A stretch of 64,000 bases of DNA from a virus (Duplodnaviria > Caudoviricetes): IMG/VR virus record IMGVR_UViG_3300037067_001739, positions 32,001 through 96,000 of that record. The stretch is one strand, 5' to 3'. The notes beneath the pieces are model-generated. The model had not been told where the DNA came from. It searched no databases and saw only the letters and a program-made list of their open reading frames with translations. The translations under genes were made by a program, and so were the position numbers. Below are positions 953 to 60,129 of this stretch, piece by piece; the stretch's first letter is position 1, and the number at the start of each line of letters is the position of its first letter.

Positions 953-953
953 G

Positions 954-1208
954 ATGAAAGTGACACTTGATTTTCCTGTAATGCACGACAGATGTAACAC
1001 TTGTGAGCACAGATTTGCGTGCTGGACAAGGAAAGTACATGTGGAATTGGATTTAACATATGGAGATGGAAGTTATCATACAATGATACAACCCTTCATC
1101 TTCGGTTTGGATTGCTTTAGACTAGAACCTTGGTCAAGGGTCAGAAATATAAAGCTTGACATCCTTCCAGACGGTACTTCGATGGTGTTAGATTTGTTTG
1201 CAGTATAA
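954..1208 (+). CDS. Cys-motif protein, unknown function
   Basis: CNTCEHRFACWT. Confidence 0.75.
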   Translation: MKVTLDFPVMHDRCNTCEHRFACWTRKVHVELDLTYGDGSYHTMIQPFIFGLDCFRLEPWSRVRNIKLDILPDGTSMVLDLFAV

Positions 1209-1286
1209 CTCCCTATAGCTCAATTGGACAAGAGCGTGTGGCTACGAACCACAAGGTTGCGGGTTCAAGTCCTGCTAGGGAGACCA
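1209..1286 (+). tRNA. tRNA-Arg(ACG)
   Basis: TGTGG-CTACGAA-CCACA, CCA end. Confidence 0.95.
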
Positions 1287-1738
1287 TGAGTGCTAAATCA
1301 AAAGCTAATGGTCATGATATAGTTTACAATGGCAAGGATTGGGTTTACTTGGATAACGGTGAAGTTGTTGACGTAAGACCGTGTGCTCGTTGTGGTGCTA
1401 AACCAGTAGCAGTTAAGGTCAAAATACCAGCCGATTTATCACACACTGGAAAAGAGTTTTGGAAGTACGCTCAAATAGACGCTTGTATTGCTCCCATCGT
1501 TAAAGCGTTACAAGATGCTGGTATAGATATGAGAGGTTCTTGTTGTGGACATGGTAGGGGAGTTGGTGATATAGAACTTCAAGATGGTCGTGCTGTTGTT
1601 ATCCTCAATCCAGAGCAAGCACATACTTTTTATGTTAAGAATGCCCTCGTAGCTGAATTGGAACAGCCGCTCGCTTCTAACGAGAAGAATGAGAGTTCGA
1701 GTCTCTCCGAGGGTGCCAGGGTGGAACTTCGTAGCTGA
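1286..1738 (+). CDS. hypothetical Cys-rich protein; reads through tRNA-Arg(TCT)
   Basis: ATG overlaps the A of the tRNA CCA; CARC and IDACIAPIVKAL..GSCCGHG motifs. Confidence 0.7.
   Translation: MSAKSKANGHDIVYNGKDWVYLDNGEVVDVRPCARCGAKPVAVKVKIPADLSHTGKEFWKYAQIDACIAPIVKALQDAGIDMRGSCCGHGRGVGDIELQDGRAVVILNPEQAHTFYVKNALVAELEQPLASNEKNESSSLSEGARVELRS
1643..1718 (+). tRNA. tRNA-Arg(TCT)
   Basis: loop CTTCTAA, GTTCGAGTC, GCCA end. Confidence 0.9.
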
Positions 1739-1836
1739 CCCGCAACGTGTTGTACGCACGTTTGTTTACGGCACGTGAACATAGTGAAAAAAGTATTAAC
1801 GAATGTGTTAATACGAGGTCAGAGCGTTAAGTACCC
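1719..1836 (+). ncRNA. unclassified multi-hairpin RNA candidate
   Basis: CTGACC/GGTCAG closing three hairpins (AACGTG/CACGTT, TGTTTACG/CGTGAACA, GTATTAAC/GTTAATAC). Confidence 0.45.
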
Positions 1837-1841
1837 TTTAT

Positions 1842-1921
1842 CTCGCTGTAGTCGGGGGAATTTCCTAAATTCTCATCCGTAAGTGGAACTGTAAATGCGA
1901 GTTCAAGCCTCGCCAGCGAGT
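1842..1921 (+). ncRNA. D-armless tRNA-like RNA, apparent anticodon CCT
   Basis: CTCGCTG/CAGCGAG acceptor, GGGAAT-TTCCTAA-ATTCTC arm, T arm GCGAG-TTCAAGC-CTCGC. Confidence 0.55.
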
Positions 1922-2032
1922 CGGGGGATGGGTACAGCCGATGAAAAGGTAAAAAACGGCAATTGATGAATGTCATGCAATACGGGTACGCCTCCACCAT
2001 CGGACTAAGTATGAAATTGGAATAGATTTTTT

Positions 2033-2109
2033 GCGGGTGTAGCCGAATTGGCATAGGCAACAGGTTTAGACCCTGAAATCTGGAAGTTCGAGTCTTCCCA
2101 CCCGCACCA
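2033..2109 (+). tRNA. tRNA-Leu(TAG), short variable loop
   Basis: loop TTTAGAC, A73, CCA end. Confidence 0.9.
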
Positions 2110-2115
2110 TATGAT

Positions 2116-2517
2116 ATGTTTCTGTACATTGCAGTTGATGACAGGACGATAAAAAGCACTTGGAATTGGGACTTTGAGGGTTGCAATTCTTGTCCGCATA
2201 GATTTGAGTGCTACACAGAAGACAGTGCTACTATAAAGCCTGTCAAAGTAGATGAGTGGGAAGCAGATAGCTACCTATATTCTCGCAATTATAAGGCTGA
2301 GTTTCATCTACCAAAATGTATACGAGCAGGGCTATTTAAGCAGATAGCGGATACTGGATATTGGAAAAGCAGTTATCCAACGGATTTCGGTGACGGCTTC
2401 AAGTTAGGTGGAGTGTTTAGTGATGAAGGTGAGCACGTTACAGTTGAGCGTGCGTGGGTAAAGTTTCCTAGCACTCTTTATGTCACTGGCTTAAAGAGAA
2501 AGGTGCGTTGGTGTTAA
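2116..2517 (+). CDS. Cys-motif protein, unknown function
   Basis: CNSCPHRFECYT; stop inside tRNA-Asp. Confidence 0.75.
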   Translation: MFLYIAVDDRTIKSTWNWDFEGCNSCPHRFECYTEDSATIKPVKVDEWEADSYLYSRNYKAEFHLPKCIRAGLFKQIADTGYWKSSYPTDFGDGFKLGGVFSDEGEHVTVERAWVKFPSTLYVTGLKRKVRWC

Positions 2518-2577
2518 TGGTGAGCATACTACCCTGTCAAGGTTGAGGGAGGGGTTCGTGTCCCCTACGCACCGCCA
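2502..2577 (+). tRNA. tRNA-Asp(GTC)
   Basis: loop CTGTCAA, GCCA end. Confidence 0.92.
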
Positions 2578-2870
2578 TGAAAAAGATAATAGCGTATACT
2601 GATGACGACAAACCCTTTGGTGATAGTCCAGAGGATTATCTAGACTATGAGCTACGTGTCATAGACAGAAGGGTAAGGATTGAAAACAAAGAGCGCAAAG
2701 ATAAAGCAACTACTACTATAGAAGGTGCTGTACAAGCGGCTCAGAGATACATGTTTTCGAGTCCTAAAGAATTCCCTATGACTGATACTCTGTTTATGGC
2801 GGAATGCAAACGAAGAAAGGTCGGTGATTGTAGTATCTGTAAACTCAGATTTAGGTGTTGGACAGAATGA
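2577..2870 (+). CDS. Cys-motif protein, unknown function
   Basis: C-terminal CSICKLRFRCWT; ATG overlaps tRNA CCA. Confidence 0.75.
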   Translation: MKKIIAYTDDDKPFGDSPEDYLDYELRVIDRRVRIENKERKDKATTTIEGAVQAAQRYMFSSPKEFPMTDTLFMAECKRRKVGDCSICKLRFRCWTE

Positions 2871-2953
2871 TTATTGATGTTCTTGTAGTGTCGTTATTTT
2901 TATTAATGCTTGGTGGTTCTGTTTGGTGTGCAACAAAATGGGATGTGCATTAA

Positions 2954-3026
2954 GGCATCGTGGTCGAGTGGCTAAGGCGAGCGTCTGCAAAACGCTTTTA
3001 CGTGGGTTCAATTCCCACCGATGCCT
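2954..3026 (+). tRNA. tRNA-Cys(GCA), no encoded CCA
   Basis: AGCGT-CTGCAAA-ACGCT, U73. Confidence 0.95.
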
Positions 3027-3027
3027 C

Positions 3028-3429
3028 ATGAATACAAAAGATATAGGTGATATTACTCAAGCTAAACTAGAACTAAAATTGTTGCTACAAGGTTACGTAG
3101 TATTGACCCCACGTGGTGATAATCTTAGATACGACTTTGTTATTGAGCGTAATGGTAACTTTGATAGAGTTCAGTGTAAGACTGGACGTTACAGAAAAGG
3201 ATGTGTGGTATTTGATACTCGTTCTTCTAGTTGGCACAGAGACGGTAAGAAAGAACCGTATAATAAATATCAGATAGATTTCTTTGGAGTATATTGTCCT
3301 CAGTTGGATAGTTATTACTTGATACCTGTTGAGGATATTGGTGATAAATACCAGTGTAACTTGCGGGTTGATGAACCGAGGAAGAAAAATAATCGTTATA
3401 TTTGGGCAAAAAATTATATTCTGGTGTAG
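3028..3429 (+). CDS. PD-(D/E)XK endonuclease, I-Ssp6803I / group I intron-associated type, free-standing
   Basis: GDITQ..PRGDNLRYDFVIE..RVQCKTG..IDFFGVY pattern. Confidence 0.8.
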   Translation: MNTKDIGDITQAKLELKLLLQGYVVLTPRGDNLRYDFVIERNGNFDRVQCKTGRYRKGCVVFDTRSSSWHRDGKKEPYNKYQIDFFGVYCPQLDSYYLIPVEDIGDKYQCNLRVDEPRKKNNRYIWAKNYILV

Positions 3430-3495
3430 TTCAATCGGTAGAGCAGGCGGCTGTTAACCGTCAAGTTGATGGTTCGAGACCATCCACCAGAGCCA
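3420..3495 (+). tRNA. tRNA-Asn(GTT)
   Basis: loop CTGTTAA, GCCA end. Confidence 0.95.
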
Positions 3496-3665
3496 TGCAG
3501 AGAATAAAGATTCCTGAGTCTAGCTACTTTGTCTATTGTAATGACAAGTGCGAGACGTGCGAGGTCAGATTCAGGTGTTTCACCAGTCGTGAAATGCTTG
3601 TTGTTGATTTACCTACAGCAAAAAGGATAGTCGAGTCTGAATATATGGATTGGTTAATTAGGTAG
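3495..3665 (+). CDS. Cys-motif protein (56 aa)
   Basis: CNDKCETCEVRFRCFT; ATG overlaps tRNA CCA. Confidence 0.72.
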   Translation: MQRIKIPESSYFVYCNDKCETCEVRFRCFTSREMLVVDLPTAKRIVESEYMDWLIR

Positions 3666-3668
3666 TAT

Positions 3669-3743
3669 GGCGGTATCTGCTAATGGTCAGGCAAGCAGGC
3701 TTTCAACCTGGAAACGGGGGTTCAATTCCCCCTACCGCTACCA
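3669..3743 (+). tRNA. tRNA-Glu(TTC)
   Basis: loop CTTTCAA, CCA end. Confidence 0.92.
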
Positions 3744-3744
3744 T

Positions 3745-3862
3745 GCTGTCGTTAATTGGGCAAAGCTAAAGATATTGACGTTACGCTCTTTGCATATGAG
3801 GCTGTACACTGATTATGTAAAGCTGAATATCTTGGTAATTGGGTTCGACTCCCAACGGCGGA
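3745..3862 (+). ncRNA. tRNA-like RNA with a long helix and insert replacing the anticodon arm
   Basis: T arm TTGGG-TTCGACT-CCCAA, CTGTCG/CGGCGG acceptor, AAGATATT/AATATCTT helix around about 50 nt. Confidence 0.55.
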
Positions 3863-3864
3863 AC

Positions 3865-3938
3865 AGCGGTGGAGAATCGGTATTCAAGATGCTCTCATAA
3901 GGCATCCTTCGAGGGTTCGACTCCCTTCCCCGCAACCA
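3865..3938 (+). tRNA. tRNA-Met(CAT), initiator-like
   Basis: loop CTCATAA, 1:72 mismatch, CCCGCAACCA end; lacks the three G-C anticodon-stem pairs. Confidence 0.8.
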
Positions 3939-3939
3939 T

Positions 3940-4013
3940 TTCCCTGTAGTGTAGTGGTAGCACGCAACGCTCTGAACGTTGTAATTCTGGTTCGAGTCCA
4001 GACAGGGGAGCCA
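3940..4013 (+). tRNA. tRNA-Gln(CTG)
   Basis: CAACG-CTCTGAA-CGTTG, GCCA end. Confidence 0.93.
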
Positions 4014-4015
4014 AG

Positions 4016-4333
4016 ATGATACCAAGAAGGATAATGCTAAAAGGCAAAACTGGACACAACGAATATATGTGTTCGGGGTCTTCTTGTGATACTTGTAAAC
4101 TCAGATTTGAATGCTTTACTGAGGATAGAGAACATATACTTTGGTTAGAGTGGGATGAGCTTCACGCAAAGTATAGAGGAATCAGTCCTTCAAGAGTATT
4201 GAGAGACATAATCGGTAGTAAAGTTTGGGTTGAGGGTAGCAGAAGGTTCAGAGAAAATATGGAAAAGGCAAGGAGCTTGCTTCCATCTGAACAGCGTGAT
4301 ATTAGAGTTCAACATTTATTAAGGGAGCTATAG
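4016..4333 (+). CDS. Cys-motif protein, unknown function
   Basis: CSGSSCDTCKLRFECFT; stop inside tRNA-Leu(AAG). Confidence 0.75.
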   Translation: MIPRRIMLKGKTGHNEYMCSGSSCDTCKLRFECFTEDREHILWLEWDELHAKYRGISPSRVLRDIIGSKVWVEGSRRFRENMEKARSLLPSEQRDIRVQHLLREL

Positions 4334-4397
4334 CCCAACTGGCAGAGGTAACTGGCTAAGAACCAGTACAGTAAGAGTTCGAATCTCTTTAGCTCCA
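4324..4397 (+). tRNA. tRNA-Leu(AAG), short variable loop, no CCA
   Basis: ACTGG-CTAAGAA-CCAGT. Confidence 0.9.
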
Positions 4398-4399
4398 CA

Positions 4400-4821
4400 A
4401 GCAAGCAGGACGAGTGAACGCTCTACGGAGAGGAAAGTCCGAACACCTTTGAGCAAGATGCAGGGTAACACCCTGGCAGAGTAATCTGACGATTAGAGCA
4501 ACAGAGACGAGTTGAGATGGACGAAAAAGAGTTAGAAGAAGAACTTCGTAAGCGTAGTGCGTTTTATGAATTGGGATACCAAATTGAACAGTTCAAAAAC
4601 ACACTTCGTAGCGAGTTTGAAAAACTCTTTAAGTTTATACTCAAGTGAAACGGGCAATCTCCATCTGGTGCAACACCAAACAGAAGGCGATGCTAGGTCG
4701 TAATGGACTAAGCGGGATGCGCTCAACGTAGTCTTCGGGTAGGTGGCAAGGAACTTAGCAGTAATGTTAAGTCAAGTCAAATGTTCACATAGACAGAATT
4801 CGGCTTACAGTCCAGCTTGCT
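4400..4821 (+). ncRNA. rnpB: RNase P RNA (bacterial type, lacking P13/P14, enlarged P12)
   Basis: GAGGAAAGTCCG and ACAGAATTCGGCTTA P4 signatures, P1 AGCAAGC/GCTTGCT, GCAACAGAGA, GTGAAACGG, P18 with GTAA loop. Confidence 0.95.
4517..4648 (+). CDS. putative 43-aa ORF embedded in RNase P RNA P12
   Basis: ATG..TGA, MDEKELEEELRKRSAFYELGYQIEQFKNTLRSEFEKLFKFILK, spans the P12 insert. Confidence 0.5.
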   Translation: MDEKELEEELRKRSAFYELGYQIEQFKNTLRSEFEKLFKFILK

Positions 4822-4825
4822 ACAT

Positions 4826-4900
4826 GGTGGTGTTGGTCTATAGGTATGACGGTTGGTTGTGACCCAGCCAAAATGGGTTCGATTCCCATACACCACCCCA
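4826..4900 (+). tRNA. tRNA-His(GTG)
   Basis: G-1, C73, loop TTGTGAC, CCA. Confidence 0.93.
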
Positions 4901-4902
4901 TA

Positions 4903-5346
4903 ATGATAAAAGAATTTCAGAGTGAGAATAGGTTTCTCTCCAATTTTTGGTTCTGCAATGGTGTAACTCTTGATGGTAAGAATTACCCATCTGTAGAGCA
5001 CGCATACCAAGCGGCAAAGACACTTGACGATAAGCAGAGAGAGGCAATTCGAACTGCGAAAACACCAGGAGAAGCCAAGAAGCTTGGCAAATCAGTAACG
5101 ATACGACCTGATTGGGAAGACGTAAAGATTGATGTAATGTACGGTTTGCTTAAACAGAAATTTAGCGAGAGCAACCCATTGTTACTGAAAAAGCTGAAGG
5201 ACACTGGCAATCAGGTGTTGCAAGAGGGTAATTATTGGTATGATACCTTTTGGGGAGTTGACCTAAGAACTGGTAAGGGACAAAATAACTTGGGTAAATT
5301 GCTCATGAAAGTAAGGGATTCATATGAGAATAATGCTCAAAAGTAA
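4903..5346 (+). CDS. NADAR (YbiA-like) family protein
   Basis: FLSNFW, SVEHAYQAAK, WEDVKIDVM, DTFWG, GQNNLGKLLMKVR. Confidence 0.92.
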   Translation: MIKEFQSENRFLSNFWFCNGVTLDGKNYPSVEHAYQAAKTLDDKQREAIRTAKTPGEAKKLGKSVTIRPDWEDVKIDVMYGLLKQKFSESNPLLLKKLKDTGNQVLQEGNYWYDTFWGVDLRTGKGQNNLGKLLMKVRDSYENNAQK

Positions 5347-5647
5347 AATTCACCATATCAAAGTTACTAACGTAGCACCGAATTACGAAGGTAGCATAGC
5401 TATTGACGGTGGGCTTCTTTCCAGAGCCGATATTCTTGAGTACGAACAGGTTCATGTTCTTGACCTGACTAATGGCAACCGCTTCATAACCTACGCTATT
5501 GAAGGTGATAAAGATGAGTGTAGCGTTAATGGTGCGGCGGCTCGATTGGTGAATGTTGGTGATGTTCTAATAATTATGGCATTCTCTATACTAAATGATG
5601 GGGCATCATACGAATTGAAACCCCGCATTGTGGTGTGCGATGGATAA
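5324..5647 (+). CDS. panD: aspartate 1-decarboxylase
   Basis: MLKSKIH..YEGSIAID..NGNRFITYAI..NGAAAR. Confidence 0.93.
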   Translation: MRIMLKSKIHHIKVTNVAPNYEGSIAIDGGLLSRADILEYEQVHVLDLTNGNRFITYAIEGDKDECSVNGAAARLVNVGDVLIIMAFSILNDGASYELKPRIVVCDG

Positions 5648-5819
5648 CCAACTACAGTCTCACCTGTTAAAAGCTTCTATTCAGATGGAAGTAGAAGAAC
5701 TTCTAGAGGGAAAATCAGAGGAATTTAAGGAAGCTTTCTACTTGGGGTTACAATACGGTGTAGAGATACAGAAGGCTTTTCTTGATTTATACTTCGGTAA
5801 AAGCGGGCGAAATTCATAA
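5640..5819 (+). CDS. hypothetical protein
   Basis: overlaps the panD stop; stop inside tRNA-Gly. Confidence 0.55.
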   Translation: MDNQLQSHLLKASIQMEVEELLEGKSEEFKEAFYLGLQYGVEIQKAFLDLYFGKSGRNS

Positions 5820-5878
5820 GGTTGAATGCTGGCTTGCCAAGTCAGACGTAGCGAGTTCAAATCTCGCCGCTCGCTCCA
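5803..5878 (+). tRNA. tRNA-Gly(GCC)
   Basis: CTGGC-TTGCCAA-GTCAG, TCCA end. Confidence 0.92.
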
Positions 5879-5897
5879 AATGGCAATTTACTTAGGC

Positions 5898-5926
5898 TTG
5901 ACTTTGTAAGTGGCATTGTGTATAAT
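5898..5926 (+). promoter_or_regulatory. sigma70-type promoter
   Basis: GGC-TTGACT-17 bp-TATAAT. Confidence 0.75.
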
Positions 5927-6299
5927 AAGGGTGACAGTGGATATAATTGTTGACCAGAATGATGTAGTTTATCGGTACAGGTGCAACGAACAATGTGACG
6001 CTTGTTCAATTAGATACATATGTTATACGAACAAGAATGTAAATGGTGTGGTGCATCTGAGAGGGCAATCCTATTCTGACCTGTTAATGCTTCGTACCAG
6101 ATTGGATTCTCTGATAACTTCACAAGAAGTGTTGTGCTCCTTGTGTTACAGACATGAGCATAAGATAGTGGCACGACCATTAGGTGAGAAGTGTCCAGAG
6201 TGTGGTCACTATATCACTTGTGAAAAGTGTGAAGCTAGTAATTGCAGTTTTCGTGGTGATGGATATAACACAAGCGGAGATTGCATAATGGAAAAGTAA
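5910..6299 (+). CDS. Cys-motif / zinc-finger protein (true start probably downstream of the promoter)
   Basis: CNEQCDACSIRYICYT plus CPEC and CEKC. Confidence 0.7.
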   Translation: MALCIIRVTVDIIVDQNDVVYRYRCNEQCDACSIRYICYTNKNVNGVVHLRGQSYSDLLMLRTRLDSLITSQEVLCSLCYRHEHKIVARPLGEKCPECGHYITCEKCEASNCSFRGDGYNTSGDCIMEK

Positions 6300-6301
6300 T
6301 T

Positions 6302-6378
6302 GCTGGTATAGCCCAATAGGCAGAGGTATCAAGCTCAAACCTTGATTAGTGCTAGTTCGAATCTAGCTACCAGCACCA
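6302..6378 (+). tRNA. tRNA-Leu(CAA), short variable loop
   Basis: TCAAG-CTCAAAC-CTTGA, CCA. Confidence 0.9.
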
Positions 6379-6400
6379 ATGAGATATATTACGGTATAAT

Positions 6401-6478
6401 GGGAGTGTAGCTTAACGGTATTAGAGCCTCCGTCTCCAAAACGGCAAGATGAGAGTTCGAATCTTTCCACTCCTGCCA
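6401..6478 (+). tRNA. tRNA-Trp(CCA)
   Basis: loop CTCCAAA, GCCA end. Confidence 0.93.
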
Positions 6479-6514
6479 AATCTCCAGTCTTCAAATATAA
6501 TTAGAGGGGATGTT

Positions 6515-6835
6515 ATGCGTGGTGCTAGACTTTGGCGAGCTATTAGAAAAGCGGAACGTGTTTTTAAGAAGTATGAAGGTTTTAATCCACGAAATGAAAA
6601 ACAAAGTGGATTTTATCGTAGCAATAGATGGACAAAGGACGAGATAAATAGAATCGTAGGAATCTACCGCAAAACAAAAGTTCCATGTTCTTGTTTTATG
6701 TGCGGTAATCCTAGAAGACATTGGGGATATTTACCAATAAGAGAGGTACGACAGCACTTGAACGCCGATTCGCAGTATGATGAAATCGGTTGGAATCATA
6801 GAAAACATAGATGGTTAAGAGGATGGTTAGAATAG
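6515..6835 (+). CDS. basic hypothetical protein
   Basis: SD GAGGGG upstream; CSCFMCGNPRR motif. Confidence 0.65.
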   Translation: MRGARLWRAIRKAERVFKKYEGFNPRNEKQSGFYRSNRWTKDEINRIVGIYRKTKVPCSCFMCGNPRRHWGYLPIREVRQHLNADSQYDEIGWNHRKHRWLRGWLE

Positions 6836-7179
6836 CAGAGGTTGATTTGAGTAAAGAGTATGCTCATAAGTATTATCTAGAACATAAAGAAAAGATAATA
6901 GCAAATGCACGTAAGAATGAAAGAATTTATGAGACAAGAGTGCGTGGGTTTATACGAGATTATTTATCAGCACATCCTTGTGTAGATTGCGGCGAGGCAG
7001 ACATAGTTGTCCTTGATTTTGACCACATTGATGGCACTAAAGAAATGTCTGTTTCTCAGATGATTAGATGGGGGTTTTCATTAGACAGGATAAAAGCTGA
7101 GATTGCTAAATGTGAGGTTCGTTGCTCTAACTGTCATAGAAAACGGCACGCAATTGAACGAGGTTTTTGGCGAGTATGA
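6811..7179 (+). CDS. HNH-type endonuclease
   Basis: CVDCGE..LDFDH..CEVRCSNCHRKRH. Confidence 0.8.
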   Translation: MVKRMVRIAEVDLSKEYAHKYYLEHKEKIIANARKNERIYETRVRGFIRDYLSAHPCVDCGEADIVVLDFDHIDGTKEMSVSQMIRWGFSLDRIKAEIAKCEVRCSNCHRKRHAIERGFWRV

Positions 7180-7245
7180 TGCAACATAGGCAGACATACC
7201 TCTCTTAAAAAGAGGTTTTTGGAAGTTCGAATCTTCTTGCTCGCA
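7170..7245 (+). tRNA. tRNA-Leu(TAA), short variable loop, no CCA
   Basis: CCTCT-CTTAAAA-AGAGG. Confidence 0.88.
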
Positions 7246-7267
7246 CAATTATAGCCATAGAAAAGGC

Positions 7268-7296
7268 TTGACATTAGGTTAGGCTCATGCTATAAT
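7268..7296 (+). promoter_or_regulatory. sigma70-type promoter
   Basis: TTGACA-17 bp (GGCTCATGC)-TATAAT. Confidence 0.85.
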
Positions 7297-7333
7297 AGGT
7301 ATAGTTAGAAACTATAGAAGGAAAGGAAAGGAC

Positions 7334-7708
7334 ATGACTGCTAAAAAATTCGGACTTGAGGAACTTGGGAAGTATGAAGCTGAGGTCGGGTTTAAGAAGA
7401 GTGATGTACGCACGATTAAAGGGGTCTGCGCTATTGTAGACCTTCCGATGACAGTCGTACCAGAAGCAAAGGAAATCATTTCTACGCTGAATGGTAACGT
7501 TGTTGCGGCACAGGGTAAGATTGCGGAAATCGAGACTGCTGAAGCAAAAGCGGAGCAAGTCCTGAAGGAGAGCATCGCAAAGATGAAGTCCGACAGAGAG
7601 ACTGCTAAAGCAACCAATAAGCTTGAAATCAACACGCAGAAGAAAGTACAAGGTAGCTTCAATAGCGAAGTAGCACGCTTGGAAAAACTTCTAAAGAATT
7701 TTTCCTAA
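7334..7708 (+). CDS. coiled-coil hypothetical protein
   Basis: SD AAGGA, own promoter, E/K/A-rich helical C-terminal half. Confidence 0.75.
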   Translation: MTAKKFGLEELGKYEAEVGFKKSDVRTIKGVCAIVDLPMTVVPEAKEIISTLNGNVVAAQGKIAEIETAEAKAEQVLKESIAKMKSDRETAKATNKLEINTQKKVQGSFNSEVARLEKLLKNFS

Positions 7709-7714
7709 CATCGG

Positions 7715-7874
7715 CTGAGTACGGTGGATTTGCCTAACTAGCCCTTGGGAGTATCCTTGAGGCTAAAGGGATAACTAGGCAGAAGGGGGAAAATCTAACC
7801 AGTTTGAGTGAACTGTGACCATCCCTTAGTGGCATGGTATCCGCTGTGGAAGGTAGACAGTCAACTGTACTCAG
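7715..7874 (+). ncRNA. unclassified structured RNA candidate (160 nt)
   Basis: terminal helix CTGAGTACGGT/ACTGTACTCAG, inner TAGCC/GGCTA and AAGGGAT/ATCCCTT. Confidence 0.55.
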
Positions 7875-7878
7875 AAAT

Positions 7879-7951
7879 GCCGAGGTAGCTCCAACGGTAG
7901 AGCGACAGATTGAAACTCTGTGCGTTAGAAGTTCAAATCTTCTTCTCGGCA
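7879..7951 (+). tRNA. tRNA-Phe(GAA), no full CCA
   Basis: ACAGA-TTGAAAC-TCTGT. Confidence 0.93.
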
Positions 7952-7952
7952 C

Positions 7953-8306: not shown

Positions 8307-8307
8307 T

Positions 8308-8396
8308 GGGTTAGCGGCAAAGTTGGAGAGTTGCCCTCGTCTGTAAAACGAGTGTCCTTAGCGGCTGAGTAGGTTCGACTCCTATCTAACCCACCA
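8308..8396 (+). tRNA. tRNA-Tyr(GTA)
   Basis: CTCGT-CTGTAAA-ACGAG, long variable arm, CCA. Confidence 0.95.
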
Positions 8397-8527
8397 TGAA
8401 ATGTAGCTGTGGTGAAGAAGCAAAATATGTAAAGAAACCGCTAATCGGCAAGAAGCAGTATCTATGTATTTATTGTGTGGTTGCTTCTTTGAATGGTTGT
8501 GCTTTAATAGAGCCAATAGATGATTGA
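8396..8527 (+). CDS. small zinc-finger-like protein (43 aa)
   Basis: ATG overlaps tRNA CCA; MKCSCG..LCIYC. Confidence 0.5.
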   Translation: MKCSCGEEAKYVKKPLIGKKQYLCIYCVVASLNGCALIEPIDD

Positions 8528-52429: not shown

Positions 52430-54373
52430 TTAGTCATTCTCCATAACAATTACTTTACCCAACTTGGGACTCCAGCCGTTGGTGTAATGCTCAGGTGTCA
52501 TAACCCAAATCGTAGGACAAGGAATCTTCTTGGGATAGTCGCCAGCTCCATCGGTCAGATAGATGATACCGTCAATCTTACCCTTGAGCTTGAACTTTTC
52601 GCCATTGCTATTCTTGTATATCTTTTTCTCTACGAATTTGAACACAGGTACGAAGCTTGTACCACCGTAACCGTACCTCTTGATGCCCTGACCCTTGGGT
52701 GGTTTCTTCTTGTACTCTTGAACATGGGTTATATCCATATCGCACTCAACGTGCGTGATACCTACCCCTGCGGAGAACATAGCCCCGATTTCTTTCCAGA
52801 ACATCGCAAATTCTTTGTCGTCAACGCTACCAGAGCTATCAGTCGCCACCACGAAATGTGCTTTCCTCTTGACCTTATAGCCAGGGAATGTGACAGGGAA
52901 TCTTCGATTTAGCCTCTTTCGAGTGCTCTCGAATTTGGCGAACTCACGGAATCCATAGAACCTGCGGAGTTCGGATTTCCACGTGATAGTCTTGTGCTCA
53001 AGGCATTCATCCACAAGACCTTTCAACCATCCAGGCATATTTCCTTGAGACTTCTCACTAGCTTTATGGACAGCTTTCTTGACCATTTCCTTGATTTTCT
53101 CGTGAGCCATTTCACGATTATCACTACCTGCCGCCCACACTTCGTGATTGTCCATCGGCATCGGGATGTCAATTCCATTTACCCGAACATTGCAACCGCT
53201 ACCAGTCTGCGGCGATTCTTTCTGTTCCTGCTCACCCTGACCATCGCCAGAACCTTGACCCTCGTCTTGTTTCTGCTCGTACTCTCCGTGACCGCTTCCA
53301 CCTTTGCCCAATGACTGCTCATTAGCTTGTCCTTGAGAGCCAAGACTACCTTGGTCTTTAGCTTGACCTTTACCATTCTGACCATTGCCAGAGTCCTGTC
53401 CACCACCCTGCTGACTGCCATCAGCACCTTGTCCAGTCTGCTGACCTTGACCACCACCAGAGCCGCTCTGCTGTTGACCCTGTTGGTCGCCACCTTGTCC
53501 CTGTCCCTGTCCCTGTTGGTTTCCAGACTGACCTTGCTGACCACCCTGTCCGCCACCTTGCTGAGACTGCTGACCCTGTTTACCAGCCTGACCACTTTGT
53601 CCTTGTGACTGCCCCTGCCCCTGCTGGTTTTGCTGTCCCTGTTGCTGTTGTCCTTGCTGACCATTGCCATTCTGGTCAGACTTACCCTGACCCATCTGTT
53701 GCTTCGCCGCACTCTCTTGCTTACCAGTGATAGAGCTACCGATTTCAATGACCATCTTCGGAACTTTCGCCCAAAGAACATCATAGTATAACTCGGAAGC
53801 TTTTTCCTTGTCGAGAGTTATCTTGTTATTGCCGACTCGGAAGTTATTGTAGTCCAACGTCTCGAATTTATGAGCCTTCGGGTCAAGGTCTTTATTACAA
53901 AGCGGGCAATTCTTACGGAACTGTCCCGTTGCGGTTTTACGTACAAAGACGTTACAGTCTGGACACATTAGCCCACTCGGTAACCCCTTAATGTACTGGT
54001 TGATTGCAATATCATTAGCCAGATTCCAGACATAGTGATTACGCCCCTCAACCCTAAGCAAGTGTTTGTTAAGAATGTGAAGAATCTCATGCTCAAGGCA
54101 CGCAATCTTTTCCTCTTGGGTCAGTCCCCAAGAATGTGCGGAGGGGTTTGCTTTGTCGTAGTCGCCAGAATTGTAGAAGTCAGTATTGATAAACAAATGA
54201 GGTTGTAACTCATTGCTTACCATAACTGCCATTGTGCGGACAATCTTACCAGCACCATCTACGCAATTTTTTCCGCTTACGCTGTGCCTGCGGAACTGCT
54301 GGAGAAGATGCCCATAAAAATGCTTATGTTGTAGAAGCAATTCAATTACTTCGGGTTCGATAAGTTCAGCCAT
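52430..54373 (-). CDS. DUF2201-type metallopeptidase + vWA protein with long Q/G-rich linker
   Basis: HEILH (HExxH), DSSGS MIDAS, GGTSF, YLTDG. Confidence 0.85.
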   Translation of the reverse strand: MAELIEPEVIELLLQHKHFYGHLLQQFRRHSVSGKNCVDGAGKIVRTMAVMVSNELQPHLFINTDFYNSGDYDKANPSAHSWGLTQEEKIACLEHEILHILNKHLLRVEGRNHYVWNLANDIAINQYIKGLPSGLMCPDCNVFVRKTATGQFRKNCPLCNKDLDPKAHKFETLDYNNFRVGNNKITLDKEKASELYYDVLWAKVPKMVIEIGSSITGKQESAAKQQMGQGKSDQNGNGQQGQQQQGQQNQQGQGQSQGQSGQAGKQGQQSQQGGGQGGQQGQSGNQQGQGQGQGGDQQGQQQSGSGGGQGQQTGQGADGSQQGGGQDSGNGQNGKGQAKDQGSLGSQGQANEQSLGKGGSGHGEYEQKQDEGQGSGDGQGEQEQKESPQTGSGCNVRVNGIDIPMPMDNHEVWAAGSDNREMAHEKIKEMVKKAVHKASEKSQGNMPGWLKGLVDECLEHKTITWKSELRRFYGFREFAKFESTRKRLNRRFPVTFPGYKVKRKAHFVVATDSSGSVDDKEFAMFWKEIGAMFSAGVGITHVECDMDITHVQEYKKKPPKGQGIKRYGYGGTSFVPVFKFVEKKIYKNSNGEKFKLKGKIDGIIYLTDGAGDYPKKIPCPTIWVMTPEHYTNGWSPKLGKVIVMEND

Positions 54374-54433
54374 AACACTCCTTATTTGATGGGTGCAGGA
54401 ATGACGTTTGCCACTCCCGCACCCTGATAAATT

Positions 54434-55609
54434 CTAGCCGATGTCACCCTTGCGTGCATGTTTGAGGATTGCGAACAGGTCGTCACGGTGGAGTAAAAGC
54501 CTGTCATTAACCGCAGGATTTAACGCAAGGTCTTTCAGAACGGAGAAAGCCAAGTCCTCTGGAAGCATGATGAAGAAGTCACCGACATTGTTTAACTGCT
54601 TATCCGTGTACTTCTCCGCCTTTGTGCCAGAGAGACAATCGTTGATTTCATCGAGCGTAATCCTGAGCAGGTCAAATCTGGTATTGCCCTCGCCAGCTTC
54701 GATTTGAGAGACAACCCTGTCACGCACCTTAGCGAAGTTGTTGAAGATTTCCTGTGCCTTTATCGGTTTGTCAAGGTCGGTCTTGAGGGAATTGACGAAG
54801 CTGATTGCCGCAGTCGCACCAATTACCGTCTCCGCAACCTCTGCCCAATATTTGCGAGGTATGGTGTCACCGCTTAACAGTTTGTGCAGGAACTCGTATG
54901 CACGAGGCGTTGGTGCGATTTCAATAGGAATGTCAATCGCATCATTGCCGAGGAATTTTTCTTCCATTGAAATAAAGTCTATAATATCCTGCATGACTTT
55001 CTTTTCACGTGCCCACTTTAACCAGTTGCTCGTGGTCATAGCAAACTTGATATGCACGAACCTGTTCATCAAAGCGGGGTCAATTTCCTCGACATTGTAT
55101 TCCTGTCCAGTGCCAGCATCGGAACTTGGGGGATTACAAGCGCAGACAATCGGACAGTTATCGGGAATTTTGTGCGTGTGTATTCTACGGTCAAGCACAA
55201 TCTGGAATGCCGCTTGCTGTACGTCAAGTCTCCCACGATTAAACTCGTCAAAGAACAGAGCACGTTTCTCGCCGTCAGTCGGAAACCATGATGGGGGTAA
55301 CCACACCATTTTACCGACTATAGGAATCTTTGCCCCCTCTTGCTCACACATCGGACAGTGAGTGAAGCGAGCCGAGAACCCATACTCCGTATGACATTTT
55401 GGACAATAGAAGCTTGACGCAGGATGCCCGATTAAGTCACCGACTTCCATCTGACCGAGACGAAGGTCTATGACTTCGTAGCCAAGTTTCTCGTACACAT
55501 CACGGACAACTTGACTTTTACCGATACCATGCTTGCCCCATAGCATCGGTGTGAGTCCAACTTCGCCACAACGCTTTAAGATAAGCTGGACAAGTTCAAG
55601 ATTTTCCAT
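54434..55609 (-). CDS. MoxR-like AAA+ ATPase
   Basis: GKHGIGKS, FFDEFNRG, DPALMNRF, TPRAYE; zinc-ribbon insert CPKC..CPMC. Confidence 0.88.
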   Translation of the reverse strand: MENLELVQLILKRCGEVGLTPMLWGKHGIGKSQVVRDVYEKLGYEVIDLRLGQMEVGDLIGHPASSFYCPKCHTEYGFSARFTHCPMCEQEGAKIPIVGKMVWLPPSWFPTDGEKRALFFDEFNRGRLDVQQAAFQIVLDRRIHTHKIPDNCPIVCACNPPSSDAGTGQEYNVEEIDPALMNRFVHIKFAMTTSNWLKWAREKKVMQDIIDFISMEEKFLGNDAIDIPIEIAPTPRAYEFLHKLLSGDTIPRKYWAEVAETVIGATAAISFVNSLKTDLDKPIKAQEIFNNFAKVRDRVVSQIEAGEGNTRFDLLRITLDEINDCLSGTKAEKYTDKQLNNVGDFFIMLPEDLAFSVLKDLALNPAVNDRLLLHRDDLFAILKHARKGDIG

Positions 55610-57143: not shown

Positions 57144-57905
57144 TTACTTCTCCACCAGAGCCTTTAACGCATCCTCAAGGTTCTGTTGCGGTTGAGCCGC
57201 AGGTGTCGCAACGGTAACCGTCTTACCAGACAGTTTGTCCTGAGCCATCTGGTTGAGCGCATCGAGGTATTTGTCGGAATAGTCCTCATGGGTGAACGGT
57301 TTGGAGAACTTGCCGATAACCTGCGTAATCAGGTCAAGCTGAACGCTGGAAACCTCGGATTTCGGCACTTGCGGTGCGTCTTTCATTTCGTTTGACCAGT
57401 ACAAGGTGGACATAACCAGTCCCCCGTTGAGAGGGCGAATAACGCAGAGACTTTCTCTCTGACGAACTGCCACCTTTCCGATTGCTACCTTGTTCAGTTT
57501 CTTCAGACCTTCAGCAAAGAGATTGAAAGCCTGAACACCGACTTCATCAGGTGCAACGTAATAGGTAGTCTCGAAAAGCAGGGGATTGATTTCCTGTGCC
57601 TGTACGAAGCGGTCAACCTCGATGTTTTTTGTAGTAGCCAACGGTAGACTGGCAAGTTCATCGTTGGAGAACGTGACCACCTGTCCCTTGCTAACCTCAA
57701 GCCCTTTCACGATGTCGTCTTTGGAAAGTTCTTTATTGCAGGTCTTACAATAAGCTTTCCTGCCACCCGCACCCATATCATCTTTATGGTATTCGTGCAG
57801 GTTGCTCTTGGCTTCTCTCGCTATCCCATCCAGTCGAACAGGAATGAGAAAAGCACCGCCGATGGAGATTGCCATTTTCCATCCACGACTTTGACCCTTA
57901 GCCAT
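57144..57905 (-). CDS. ku: Ku DNA end-binding protein
   Basis: WKMAISIG..IPVRL, DIVKGLEV, IEVDRFV..ETTYYVAPD, RQRE, TLYWSNE. Confidence 0.92.
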   Translation of the reverse strand: MAKGQSRGWKMAISIGGAFLIPVRLDGIAREAKSNLHEYHKDDMGAGGRKAYCKTCNKELSKDDIVKGLEVSKGQVVTFSNDELASLPLATTKNIEVDRFVQAQEINPLLFETTYYVAPDEVGVQAFNLFAEGLKKLNKVAIGKVAVRQRESLCVIRPLNGGLVMSTLYWSNEMKDAPQVPKSEVSSVQLDLITQVIGKFSKPFTHEDYSDKYLDALNQMAQDKLSGKTVTVATPAAQPQQNLEDALKALVEK

Positions 57906-58239
57906 TTTTCACCTCGCATAAAGCTATTGTATTTATAGGTATCTTTTGTAACACTGACCAACACAAGAACCTGTCCAAACATTCGCCACAGCTCCGAGTA
58001 CAGGTGATGAAAGCTTCGGCAAATTCTTCGGACTGTCCACATTCGGGACAAAAGTCCATAGGTTCGCAGTCATAGTTGCCACCGATGTTGAAGTGCTGGT
58101 AGTCGTGCTTCATTTGTGCCGACCAACCTTCCCATCCGCACTTGCCGCACTTCACGTAGTGCTCGTAGTCTGTATGTCTGCTAAACACTATAGAATTCCC
58201 CACATTTATAATTGTACCACGTGCCACCGTCATTGTCAA
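57898..58239 (-). CDS. Cys-motif / zinc-ribbon protein
   Basis: CGECLDRFLCWS. Confidence 0.7.
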   Translation of the reverse strand: MTMTVARGTIINVGNSIVFSRHTDYEHYVKCGKCGWEGWSAQMKHDYQHFNIGGNYDCEPMDFCPECGQSEEFAEAFITCTRSCGECLDRFLCWSVLQKIPINTIALCEVKNG

Positions 58240-58907
58240 GTACCCTTAGAGAGTGCAAGTTCAGCATGGAGTAGAATACGTGCCAAAGCTGGATTGACTC
58301 CCCTCTTTCTAAATGTACGGTATATCACGATTGTCTGCGCCCCATCCCAAGTATTCTTGAGAATTGACTCAACATCTTTTTCACTTAGTACCCAAACAGT
58401 ACCACCATAGCGAGCATACACTCCCTTTGGCTTGAACTCGTACCCGAAACCGATTTTGCCCAACCTTGCTCGGAGATTTTCGAGTGCCTTTTGAGCATCA
58501 TCCTTCCGCTTCTTTTCCATGTAAGCCTTAGCATCTTTGACTTGCTCTTCTCGGCTCTTTTCTATGGGTACTTGGTAATCTCCATCATCTACGTTGCCTG
58601 TCCAGCAGTTGAAGAAACTCTTGCAGGCTTTCGTGCAATTACAGGAGATTCCTTCTGGACTTAGAAGATTACCACCAATGAAGGGGCGGCACTGAGGGTG
58701 AACGATAATAGCAGGCTCATTAACATCGCTCATTTCTCGGCTAAACGGATTCCACTTACCACCACTTCGGTAACCCCAATTAGACGCACCGCAATGGGGG
58801 CATTTCATCTTGTCGAGAATAAGGTGATGAATGCCAAACTTCCTGTCCTTGTCTCTTTCAGACAGGGTAGTGAAGTCTTTGCCGCATCTGTTACAATGGA
58901 GTTTCAT
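58236..58907 (-). CDS. zinc-ribbon protein with variant Cys motif
   Basis: CNRC..CPHC; CTKACKSFFNCWT. Confidence 0.68.
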   Translation of the reverse strand: MKLHCNRCGKDFTTLSERDKDRKFGIHHLILDKMKCPHCGASNWGYRSGGKWNPFSREMSDVNEPAIIVHPQCRPFIGGNLLSPEGISCNCTKACKSFFNCWTGNVDDGDYQVPIEKSREEQVKDAKAYMEKKRKDDAQKALENLRARLGKIGFGYEFKPKGVYARYGGTVWVLSEKDVESILKNTWDGAQTIVIYRTFRKRGVNPALARILLHAELALSKGT

Positions 58908-59290
58908 TTATCGGCTCTTTTTTCCTCACGCTTTCGCTCATTCTCTATTATTTTAGCACGAGCCGCACATTTAGTCAAGTCCACACCACTACGAGCCAAG
59001 AACGCTTCCAGCAGTTCAGTGATGGTGGGTTCTTGGTCAAACGGTATCTTTGCCAAATCATCTTCCAAGTTTACCCTCAAGCCGTCACTCGTAAAGCAAC
59101 GGAACTTGAGTTTACAGGATTTACAGATGTTTTCTTCGTCAGTGTTGCCGAGACACCGCTTATCCATTAGGAGCTGGTATGGTTTATCCTTGAAGGTCAG
59201 GTAAATGGGCTTTCCAGGCTCTTCCTTGACCTCTCGGATTTTAACTGTGATGATAGCATCATCCTCAAGATTCACAGCCACTCGCTTCAT
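58904..59290 (-). CDS. Cys-motif protein
   Basis: CKSCKLKFRCFT. Confidence 0.72.
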   Translation of the reverse strand: MKRVAVNLEDDAIITVKIREVKEEPGKPIYLTFKDKPYQLLMDKRCLGNTDEENICKSCKLKFRCFTSDGLRVNLEDDLAKIPFDQEPTITELLEAFLARSGVDLTKCAARAKIIENERKREEKRADK

Positions 59291-59636
59291 AATCGCTTCT
59301 CCCTTTCTTGTTTAGATATATTACAAACCACTCGGCATCTTTCATTTTTATGTCTCTACAATGGTTTCCGTATGGTAAGTCCTTACGATTCGTATTCCTG
59401 CCACGTGGATGTATACTCCACATGGTTTTGTTGAGGAACTTTTTGCACAACTCCAGAAACAGTTGCCCTTCTTCGTTGTTGGGTACATCAAAAGCATATC
59501 TGAATCTACCAGTCTGTACTTTCCTCAGCTTGCCAGTAGTAAAGCATTCGAACTTATATTTACACTTGCCGCAGACACCGCTAGTTATATCTGGTGTCAT
59601 TGTCAATCTACACTTTGCTATTAAATGCTGATTCAT
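59265..59636 (-). CDS. Cys-motif protein
   Basis: CGKCKYKFECFT. Confidence 0.72.
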   Translation of the reverse strand: MNQHLIAKCRLTMTPDITSGVCGKCKYKFECFTTGKLRKVQTGRFRYAFDVPNNEEGQLFLELCKKFLNKTMWSIHPRGRNTNRKDLPYGNHCRDIKMKDAEWFVIYLNKKGRSDYEASGCES

Positions 59637-59854
59637 TTTTCTTTATGTCGAATTGTAAAGCAACGGAAACGATACGCACACGTGAGACAAGCCTTTCTTG
59701 AGTGGGTAAATCTTGGTGGGTGAACCTGCTCTTTTACTTTACCCCAAATCAAGTTCCAGCATTGCCCCATTATCTTATCCACAAAATCTTGTGGTGGTGT
59801 CTCTCCATTTGCTTTCCATATACTTTCAGTACGTTGAATCTTGGTGGGCTTCAT
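59633..59854 (-). CDS. Cys-motif protein
   Basis: CLTCAYRFRCFT. Confidence 0.72.
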   Translation of the reverse strand: MKPTKIQRTESIWKANGETPPQDFVDKIMGQCWNLIWGKVKEQVHPPRFTHSRKACLTCAYRFRCFTIRHKEK

Positions 59855-60129
59855 TTCTTTATCGTATAGCAGAGGAATCTATCTTCGCAGTCTCCGCACA
59901 TGTCCAGTGCCTTGAACATCTTACAGTTACGAATATCTGCTAATTCTCTTAATTCATCCTCATGTAATGCCCAAAACTGACCATTTTCAAATTGAAGATG
60001 ATATTTCCTCACCTTGTAGTCAATGGCGAACACCCAACCGAACAACCCTAAGAATGTTTCCTCGCCAATTCTACCAGTTTCTTTTATCTTAATCCTGTCG
60101 CCAAGATTGATAGCGTTTTCTAACTTCAT
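59851..60129 (-). CDS. Cys-motif protein
   Basis: CGDCEDRFLCYT. Confidence 0.72.
   Translation of the reverse strand: MKLENAINLGDRIKIKETGRIGEETFLGLFGWVFAIDYKVRKYHLQFENGQFWALHEDELRELADIRNCKMFKALDMCGDCEDRFLCYTIKK

Follow-up and report, generated by a model that had tools for sequence, protein, structure and literature searches.

The cysteine spacing CX2CX5C is a cluster-binding spacing found in NUBP1, RseC, Dna2, WhiB, and SPASM domains. In the iron staple of Cas4, AddB, Dna2, and Exo5, one N-terminal cysteine and a C-x2-C-x5-C triad are the ligands of a [4Fe-4S] cluster, which keeps the domain together (PMC3466216). In the structure of a related nuclease the staple layout holds zinc instead (PMC3466216). 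The same layout can thus bind a [4Fe-4S] cluster or zinc, and, therefore, the metal cannot be read from the cysteine pattern. Here, a 12-residue motif with this triad is described, in the following called the tag, which recurs on many proteins encoded in one stretch of viral DNA, i.e., bases 32001-96000 of the 134,397-bp IMG/VR virus record IMGVR_UViG_3300037067_001739. This whole stretch of 64,000 nucleotides is called the window, and the record was estimated to be about 90% complete.

The window was scanned by six-frame translation, and the motif pattern used was C-x2-C-x2-[RK]-[FY]-x-C-[aromatic/aliphatic]-[T/S/E]. The form C-x2-C-x5-C-[FWY]-T was present in 37 copies, 35 of which had [RK]-F at positions 7-8, and seven additional copies with I or L at position 11 or S or E at position 12 raised the total to 44. 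Not a single copy was found in 20 base-shuffled versions of the window. Every copy is in frame and on the coding strand only, which switches from plus to minus near 12.5 kb, and 43 of the 44 copies are located inside called open reading frames (ORFs), one per ORF. The position within the protein ranges from residue 3 via internal sites to an end one residue before the stop codon; 14 copies end at most 10 residues from the stop codon, and 15 at most 12 residues. A previous sequence-only reading of the window had reported about 44 ORF copies on both strands between positions 954 and 60129, with about 14 of them near the C-terminus. These numbers were reproduced, and also the borders agree with the first (954-1208) and the last (59851-60129) carrier ORF. 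The whole 134-kb genome contains 50 copies, and 45 of them are within or just beside the window.

The analysis was extended to five complete or near-complete genomes of the same clade, which have sizes of 134-153 kb, three of them with direct terminal repeats. In total, 243 tag copies were counted, and the consensus is C-[DEN]-x-C-x-x-R-F-x-C-[WFY]-T-x-[RK]. The information content is high over about 14 residues only and is at background on either side.

From these and the following results we infer that a small, portable metal-binding site (a putative "clasp") is probably present, of which the tag is the conserved half. The 12-mer would provide three cysteine ligands (C-x2-C-x5-C) and a conserved shell: R-F is located between the second and the third cysteine, and the third is followed by an aromatic residue and Thr; in addition, position 2 is often acidic and position 14 often basic. 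The carrier protein would provide the fourth cysteine, nearly always N-terminal of the block, at a distance that ranges from adjacent to more than 70 residues. The four cysteines would hold one metal centre, and would fasten the end or loop that bears the tag to the rest of the protein. Where the fourth cysteine travels with the tag, both would form a self-contained mini-domain of about 20-45 residues.

The consistent presence of a further cysteine is the main addition to the first reading, which had noticed a fourth cysteine a few residues upstream of many copies, at variable spacing. None of the 208 tagged ORFs of the five genomes lacked a further cysteine, while 25.6 such ORFs were expected from the cysteine frequency of untagged small ORFs (P about 7e-12). 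The small ORFs of the five genomes are unusually cysteine-rich, with 2.2-2.6% in untagged ORFs of less than 250 residues and 3.0-3.8% in tagged proteins outside of the tag, compared to 1.1-1.5% in ORFs of at least 250 residues. Exactly one further cysteine was present in 66 tagged ORFs, and in 60 of these it was upstream of the tag, at a distance of 2 to 75 residues. A preference for the upstream side was also seen over the 243 copies, 78% of which have a cysteine within 20 residues upstream versus 24% within 20 residues downstream, in agreement with the first reading. The close upstream cysteine is conserved throughout 24 of 27 families, and it is invariant in two families that were sampled more deeply (17 and 35 homologues).

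In the bL12-type family (21 sequences, identity down to 42%) only one other cysteine is conserved, about 72 residues ahead of the tag and at the N-terminal edge of the L12 domain. The tag is located at the C-terminal edge, and, thus, the domain is bracketed. The distal cysteine is kept in 20 of the 21 sequences, and the exception has a cysteine eight residues further on. Two metagenomic proteins with two tags, P0053 and P0054, have one extra upstream cysteine for each tag; P0053 is an internal duplication of a unit of about 60 residues with C-x10-C-x2-C-x5-C. In the family with the tag at residue 3, five more conserved cysteines follow downstream, enough for two four-ligand sites. Each tag thus appears to complete a four-ligand site within its own carrier, and the cysteines can be explained without a partner.

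The 44 tag copies of the window, based on the six-frame motif scan and the ORF calls, are the following:

993-1028, plus strand: tag copy 1, ORF 954-1208 (84 residues), residues 14-25
2182-2217, plus strand: tag copy 2, ORF 2116-2517 (133 residues), residues 23-34
2829-2864, plus strand: tag copy 3, ORF 2577-2870 (97 residues), one residue ahead of the stop
3549-3584, plus strand: tag copy 4, ORF 3402-3665 (87 residues)
4085-4120, plus strand: tag copy 5, ORF 4016-4333 (105 residues)
5994-6029, plus strand: tag copy 6, R-Y variant, ORF 5910-6299 (129 residues)
8676-8711, plus strand: tag copy 7, ORF 8520-8795 (91 residues), CxxC...C also upstream
9923-9958, plus strand: tag copy 8, ORF 9674-9970 (98 residues), 3 residues ahead of the stop
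13029-13064, minus strand: tag copy 9, ORF 12735-13070 (111 residues), residues 3-14, five more conserved cysteines downstream
19873-19908, minus strand: tag copy 10, ORF 19654-20163, within the 169-residue PolA-like fragment adjoining PurZ
21337-21372, minus strand: tag copy 11, ORF 21319-21630 (103 residues), 5 residues ahead of the stop
23461-23496, minus strand: tag copy 12, kinase-like protein, ORF 22924-23709 (261 residues), residues 72-83
27697-27732, minus strand: tag copy 13, C-I-T variant, ORF 27394-27930 (178 residues)
29093-29128, minus strand: tag copy 14, ORF 28889-29197 (102 residues)
29440-29475, minus strand: tag copy 15, ORF 29170-29550 (126 residues)
29633-29668, minus strand: tag copy 16, ORF 29534-29770 (78 residues), fourth cysteine immediately adjacent
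32456-32491, minus strand: tag copy 17, ORF 32450-32617 (55 residues), one residue ahead of the stop
34920-34955, minus strand: tag copy 18, ORF 34899-35288, radical-SAM-array family, C-terminal add-on of about 38 residues
35540-35575, minus strand: tag copy 19, ORF 35279-35761 (160 residues), radical-SAM-array family
36998-37033, minus strand: tag copy 20, ORF 36989-37303 (104 residues), 2 residues ahead of the stop
37630-37665, minus strand: tag copy 21, ORF 37606-37983 (125 residues)
37974-38009, minus strand: tag copy 22, C-L-T variant, ORF 37965-38249 (94 residues)
39142-39177, minus strand: tag copy 23, ORF 38959-39369 (136 residues)
39305-39340, minus strand: tag copy 24, variant with K-F and Y-E, family-4-type uracil-DNA glycosylase (UDG), ORF 39299-40042 (247 residues), end of the C-terminal extension of about 45 residues
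40387-40422, minus strand: tag copy 25, ORF 40039-40470 (143 residues), residues 17-28, C-x-C-x2-C-x5-C, invariant in 17 homologues
40631-40666, minus strand: tag copy 26, C-L-S variant, ORF 40460-40741 (93 residues)
42502-42537, minus strand: tag copy 27, ORF 42271-42651 (126 residues)
42912-42947, minus strand: tag copy 28, ORF 42648-43040 (130 residues)
43865-43900, minus strand: tag copy 29, ORF 43703-43960 (85 residues)
46444-46479, minus strand: tag copy 30, ORF 46435-46941 (start at 46884 according to gene callers elsewhere), right behind the bL12 C-terminal domain, distal fourth cysteine at the N-terminal edge of the domain
47297-47332, minus strand: tag copy 31, ORF 47066-47479 (137 residues)
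47545-47580, minus strand: tag copy 32, ORF 47506-47937 (143 residues), degenerate C-A-T version in the orthologue of the related genome G001
49515-49550, minus strand: tag copy 33, C-I-T variant, ORF 49308-49607 (99 residues)
49735-49770, minus strand: tag copy 34, 89-codon open frame without canonical start ahead of the tag, expression uncertain
49859-49894, minus strand: tag copy 35, ORF 49796-50164 (122 residues), C-x6-C-x2-C-x5-C behind a SWIM zinc finger, tagged in all five genomes and in 35 homologues
50430-50465, minus strand: tag copy 36, R-Y variant, ORF 50166-50591 (141 residues)
50582-50617, minus strand: tag copy 37, ORF 50570-50866 (98 residues), 3 residues ahead of the stop
51130-51165, minus strand: tag copy 38, ORF 51034-51567 (177 residues)
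51558-51593, minus strand: tag copy 39, C-L-T variant, ORF 51540-52106 (188 residues), closest other cysteine about 48 residues upstream
57955-57990, minus strand: tag copy 40, C-W-S variant, ORF 57898-58239 (113 residues), CxxC replaces the second knuckle of the C4 zinc ribbon of the orthologue in the related genome G002
59090-59125, minus strand: tag copy 41, K-F variant, ORF 58904-59290 (128 residues)
59538-59573, minus strand: tag copy 42, K-F variant, ORF 59265-59636 (123 residues)
59654-59689, minus strand: tag copy 43, ORF 59633-59854 (73 residues)
59863-59898, minus strand: tag copy 44, ORF 59851-60129 (92 residues), 3 residues ahead of the stop

Copy 34 is located in the open frame 49555-49824 (minus strand), in which none of the start codons ATG, GTG, and TTG precedes the tag. 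This frame has no orthologue in four relatives and overlaps, in another reading frame, with the end of the SWIM gene. It could use a rare start codon, be expressed by frameshifting, or be a dead copy.

The next question was whether the carriers are related to one another. When the tag was masked, an all-against-all BLASTP comparison of the tagged proteins of the window revealed no pair at E<0.01, with one exception, i.e., two proteins of the radical-SAM array (described below) that share a different common N-terminal sequence. No Pfam or PHROG family covered the tag in the 43 tagged ORFs that were scanned. The Pfam matches of the carriers themselves are diverse (UDG, Ribosomal_L12, Pkinase, and DNA_pol_A), and the location of the tag differs between them. 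It is at the extreme C-terminal end of the UDG-superfamily (family-4-type) glycosylase, which has an N-terminal CxxC of its own, immediately behind the domain of the bL12 protein, N-terminal of the kinase region of the kinase-like protein, inside the matched stretch of the PolA-like fragment, and C-terminal of the finger of the SWIM zinc finger protein. Tagged proteins are short (median length about 94-119 residues). The claims that the flanking sequences are unrelated and that the tag is a portable module on unrelated carriers were thus supported.

The PolA-like fragment is conserved, resembles the fingers region of PolA, and adjoins a homologue of the PurZ-type adenylosuccinate synthetase of the 2-aminoadenine DNA pathway (both at 19654-21346, minus strand); a full-length PolA is encoded elsewhere (genome 17390-19450).

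These results bear on a rival explanation, in which all carriers descend from one family of paralogues and have diverged, or in which a repeat or a mobile insert in the DNA is read in frame by chance. Paralogues have indeed expanded locally to some extent in the clade: in G001, at about 28000-35300, genes for 85-96 residues follow one another with a spacing of about 250-300 bp, and nearly all of them end with C-W-T-x-stop. This run is a local expansion of C-terminally tagged small proteins, and the window does not contain such a run. For the carriers of the window, the masked BLASTP comparison, the different Pfam domains, the N-terminal, internal, and C-terminal positions, and the restriction to the coding frame all argue against one family or a repeat. 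The codons argue in the same direction: TGT and TGC are mixed at all three cysteines, all six Arg codons and all four Thr codons are used, TTT and TTC are about equally frequent, and the synonymous codon proportions are close to those in the remaining coding sequence. Codon usage within the motif is thus at background, and, therefore, selection acts on the peptide, as the first reading had concluded from the variation between copies. An origin by paralogy or by a DNA repeat is, thus, very improbable. The comparison of orthologues revealed 88% identity at the seven fixed positions of the tag, 43% in the rest of the protein, and 30% at the five free tag positions, and the tag is kept under strong purifying selection.

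Clustering of the proteins from the five genomes was used to follow gain and loss. In 28 families all members are tagged at the equivalent position, and eight families are mixed. In the mixed families the tag arrives as a clean appendage, and one example is the UDG. In this genome and in G003 it has a C-terminal extension of about 45 residues, which consists of a helix-like segment with a cysteine, ten residues, and the tag. The UDGs of G001 and G002 end just ahead of the extension, and also the UDG homologue of G004 is without the tag. The alignment of orthologues, which had been proposed as a check for clean insertion, thus gave a clear-cut case with the extension in two genomes and its lack in three. 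A C-terminal add-on of the same kind, about 38 residues long, was found in one member of the radical-SAM-array family. Several of the "untagged" members of mixed families contain decayed tags, in which position 11 is A or H, position 12 is A, or one of the cysteines has been replaced.

A different explanation of the cysteines was suggested by a gene in the midst of the tagged genes. The window encodes a radical-SAM/SPASM enzyme (35931-37007), followed by about 11 ORFs that share only an N-terminus of about 20 residues (approximately M-K-I-R-x-G-F-V-S-N-S-S-S; whole region 29801-37007, minus strand). Besides the tag, the genome thereby has another common peptide of unlike sequence, and two of the array ORFs are also Cys-tagged. 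The enzyme might recognize or cross-link the tag, and the cysteines would then be substrates for thioether formation, as in sactipeptides, ranthipeptides, and the QhpC subunit, and not ligands. The location of the gene, the two tagged members of the array, and the fact that the typical substrates of SPASM enzymes are cysteine-rich peptides speak for this explanation. However, while G001 and G003 encode the enzyme, the complete genome G002 lacks it in spite of its 35-49 tags (the number varies with the count used), and G004, which also has many tags, retains only a 58-residue remnant. The enzyme is therefore not an obligate partner of the tag. In addition, the N-terminal sequence of the array is the likelier recognition element, and the constant fourth cysteine fits a metal site better than a cross-link. 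Taken together, we regard modification by this enzyme as hardly credible. The auxiliary motif of the SPASM domain was also considered as a source of the tag and was rejected; the window enzyme has C-x2-C-x2-C at that site.

The distribution of the tag was analyzed next. A scan of IMG/VR with a degenerate DNA pattern yielded many multi-copy contigs. In the five clade genomes the exact pattern matched 16-41 times per genome, versus zero matches for the reversed control, and 25-48 ORFs per genome are tagged, i.e., 11-17% of all ORFs, never with two tags in one ORF. The terminases of the relatives are 70-78% identical to that of this genome, and further relatives were found via the terminase with identities of 57%-98%, apart from one untagged outlier fragment with 38%. 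A more distant and incomplete genome, G007 (GC content 34%), has core proteins with 30-57% identity and only two variant copies, which are located in two adjacent small ORFs at about 8200-8500 (minus strand) and read C-x3-C-x2-C-x2-K-F-x-C-[YW]-I. This variant may represent an earlier state of the module or a diverged one. G007 was rejected as a tag-less control; its 90 kb cover mostly modules that are tag-free also in this genome, and the two variant copies are present. No close deposited phage was found with blastn and tblastn, and the best terminase match had 21% identity.

Single pattern matches elsewhere in the IMG/VR scan are regarded as chance matches, because they contain stop codons or are located in very short frames. 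The specific pattern was also searched in the genomes of 185,579 species, and 28 single matches were obtained at an estimated chance level of about 20; only two small sediment contigs among them look like genuine fragments of the clade. The tag is therefore specific to this clade of viruses, and cellular proteomes do not share it. In a profile search against 1.84 billion representatives five proteins passed E 0.001, a signal that is too short to be a measure of spread.

The first reading had proposed that the tag is used genome-wide, and this was overstated. The tag is absent from genome positions 0-25 kb and 115-134 kb, which contain the genes for terminase, portal, tail, DnaB, and full-length PolA, i.e., it is missing from the virion module and the large replication enzymes. 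Also the larger enzymes of the window are without it, i.e., PurZ, the CCA-adding enzyme, RtcB, the clamp-loader-like protein, the MoxR-type ATPase, and the DUF2201 protein. The module has spread within one clade of uncultivated phages of about 135-153 kb onto proteins that are all non-virion and mostly small. Two observations on translation genes can be added. At 111-12599 (plus strand) of the window thirty tRNA genes are interspersed with small ORFs, eight of which are tagged. Together with the CCA-adding enzyme (13727-15076), RtcB (61594-62751), peptide deformylase (17088-17564), and the bL12-type protein the tRNAs make up a conspicuous set of translation functions.

The identity of the metal was evaluated within the interpretation of the tag as half of a metal-binding site. 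A [4Fe-4S] cluster would be the somewhat favoured centre, with slightly better than even chances, because of the spacing, the polarity, and the company of the tag, i.e., the CxxC-bearing UDG, the staple nuclease (see below), and the radical-SAM enzyme in the same genomes. Zinc would be a substantial second possibility. Among 43 tagged proteins only two weak, sub-threshold matches to zinc-finger Pfam families were obtained, and a CxxC is present within 40 residues upstream of the tag in 41 of the 243 copies. In one family, the first two cysteines of the tag coincide in the alignment with the second knuckle of an orthologue that has an ordinary C4 zinc ribbon, and therefore zinc stays in play. 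An IscU/NifU scaffold encoded by the phage was not found.

Several results weigh against the interpretation as a metal-binding site or complicate it. When the ORFs were trimmed to the last Met before the tag, 33 ORFs had no further cysteine, which is still below the 59 expected; this trimming is too harsh. In a few families the fourth ligand is ambiguous owing to several other cysteines. A hidden Markov model of the tag retrieved nothing from all PDB sequences at E values up to 10, and the same was true for the 143-residue family. Foldseek and VIA-align against the PDB gave no meaningful match, and the rows returned covered the SWIM half only. A protein atlas queried with the tag segment gave no usable match. 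AlphaFold predicted the tag of the 143-residue family with low confidence (predicted local distance difference test, pLDDT, 42-47) and that of the SWIM family with moderate confidence (pLDDT about 71); in the SWIM model a strand ends at the fourth cysteine, a short turn is located at the CxxC, and a helix extends over R-F-x-C-W-T. Finally, two observations are hard to explain by a purely structural role, i.e., four non-ligand residues are near-invariant over unrelated carriers, and a complete UDG has gained a self-contained copy that its orthologues lack. Literature searches revealed no published description of the motif or of a phage-wide cysteine tag, and also Pfam, PHROG, and the PDB sequences held no match to the tag; thus, the statements that neither a described domain nor a known tagging system corresponds to it are in accord with the databases and the literature.

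The near-invariant residues and the gain by the UDG speak for the proposal of the first reading that the tag is an address label. One common partner, i.e., a phage or host protein, a compartment, a protease, or a chaperone, would read the conserved face of the metal-bound tag (R, F, the aromatic residue, and T), and the phage would route, assemble, time, or destroy about 40-50 early proteins by one signal. This would be an addition to metal binding. Besides the near-invariant residues, between which the other positions vary freely, and the gain by the UDG, the proposal would account for the single copy per protein in all five genomes, the location of 40% of the copies within 12 residues of the C-terminus and of others from residue 3 onwards, the restriction to non-virion proteins, and the low confidence of structure prediction, as is seen for motifs that fold upon binding. 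The gain by the UDG, the near-invariant non-ligand residues, the one-per-protein rule, and the terminal positions suggest that the module does more than hold a fold, and this evidence does not require a partner.

Only 36 families are shared by all five genomes. The non-virion families among them include a MoxR-type AAA+ ATPase, a DUF2201 metallopeptidase/VWA protein, peptide deformylase, and a ClpP-like protease, and the ATPase, which is encoded beside the DUF2201 protein, and the protease would be conceivable readers of a label. The DUF2201 putative metallopeptidase/VWA protein (647 residues) and the MoxR-type ATPase (391 residues) are encoded side by side at window 52430-55609 (minus strand) and are kept in all five genomes. 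MoxR/VWA-type pairs are often metal-insertion or remodelling chaperones. However, no partner was found; the candidates are common phage genes that nothing links to the tag, and these shared proteins may serve as leads only. The radical-SAM enzyme is excluded as an obligate partner, the four-cysteine site of each carrier makes a ligand from a partner unnecessary, and the invariant residues could merely shield and tune a solvent-exposed cluster. Furthermore, since cellular genomes lack the motif, the label has no counterpart among host proteins. An address label is, thus, a rather doubtful proposal. Only slightly less tentative is a wider version, in which the tag would be a proteome-wide control handle, with the face of a [4Fe-4S] or zinc site read by one partner or with a cluster that senses iron, oxygen, or redox state. 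That such a handle would couple the folding, location, or lifetime of 40-50 unrelated early proteins, including the uracil-DNA glycosylase and the bL12-like factor, to a single signal is likewise a possibility of low probability. To our knowledge, no shared metal-dependent label has been described for any virus.

Irrespective of a label, the proposed metal site could have consequences. It could stabilize small, fast-evolving proteins, or it could tie many early proteins to the iron-sulfur supply or the redox state of the host. If the tag binds a cluster, the demand on the cluster-assembly machinery of the host would be unusually large, and much of the early programme would depend on iron and the redox state. 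The tag would then also be about the smallest transferable cluster-binding element known, possibly useful in protein engineering. If it is in addition a recognition signal, it would represent a new viral way of addressing many proteins at once.

The comparison with described sites revealed partial likeness in four cases. WhiB-like proteins (PF02467) share C-Xn-C-X2-C-X5-C, an Arg three residues after the second triad cysteine, and a hydrophobic residue that follows the last cysteine. In these proteins of actinobacteria and actinophages (Wbl proteins), which are small, the cluster pocket also serves as a surface for protein binding. In contrast, the tag carriers are diverse and have no Wbl fold downstream, and the genomes are not actinobacterial in composition (GC content 37-42%). 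The model PF02467 gave one local match over five genomes, with 14.1 bits versus a cut-off of 23.6, and it covered the cysteine triad only. The second case is the EndoIII/MutY loop (C-x6-C-x2-C-x5-C), the last three ligands of which correspond to all tag copies, and its spacing is identical in the SWIM family (49796-50164). However, the x6 spacing is present only in some carriers, among the tag families exclusively in the SWIM family, the loop residues differ, and the tag carriers are without HhH-GPD; no tagged protein had an HhH-GPD Pfam match, and the tagged glycosylase belongs to the UDG superfamily. Third, NUBP1/Nbp35 (CX13CX2CX5C at the N-terminus, with a [4Fe-4S] cluster) and RseC (CX5CX2CX5C) also have short, terminal four-cysteine segments with the same triad spacing, which bind a cluster on otherwise unrelated proteins, but these are features of single families with no likeness to the tag beyond the cysteines.

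The iron staple of Cas4, AddB, Dna2, and Exo5 is the fourth case. The first reading had pointed to the spacing of known [4Fe-4S] sites, and the layout of the tag, C-Xn-C-X2-C-X5-C, is indeed that of the Cas4/AddB staple, with the triad towards the C-terminus and one cysteine further N-terminal. The four cysteines would clamp separate parts of the chain around one metal centre, which in the tag, as in the nucleases, could be [4Fe-4S] or zinc. The triad spacing was present in all 243 copies, and the fourth, N-terminal cysteine has its counterpart in the further cysteine of all 208 tagged ORFs and in the upstream location of 60 of the 66 lone ones. A RecB-type PD-(D/E)XK domain was not found, as no tagged protein matches PF12705 or PF01930. 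Each of the five genomes does encode one untagged Cas4-like PD-(D/E)XK nuclease, above threshold for both models, which has exactly four cysteines in the canonical arrangement, at residues 14, 225, 228, and 234. It has an aromatic residue at position 6 and Leu-Gly after the triad, in place of the R-F (positions 7-8) and the aromatic-Thr pair (positions 11-12) of the tag. The layout is shared and the residues around the cysteines differ, and thus the tag is an architectural relative of the iron staple and not a copy. A further untagged protein of 239 residues without a Pfam match (genome 24122-24841, plus strand) ends with C-x2-C-x5-C (C-A-H-C-P-L-G-N-V-C) and may be another conventional cluster-binding protein. 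In contrast to the staple, the tag is found on many carriers without a nuclease domain, on 11-17% of the proteome, and its fourth cysteine can be adjacent. Taken together, the known C-Xn-C-X2-C-X5-C sites are each confined to a single family, whereas here a 12-residue plug-in is found on about one in six proteins of one viral lineage.

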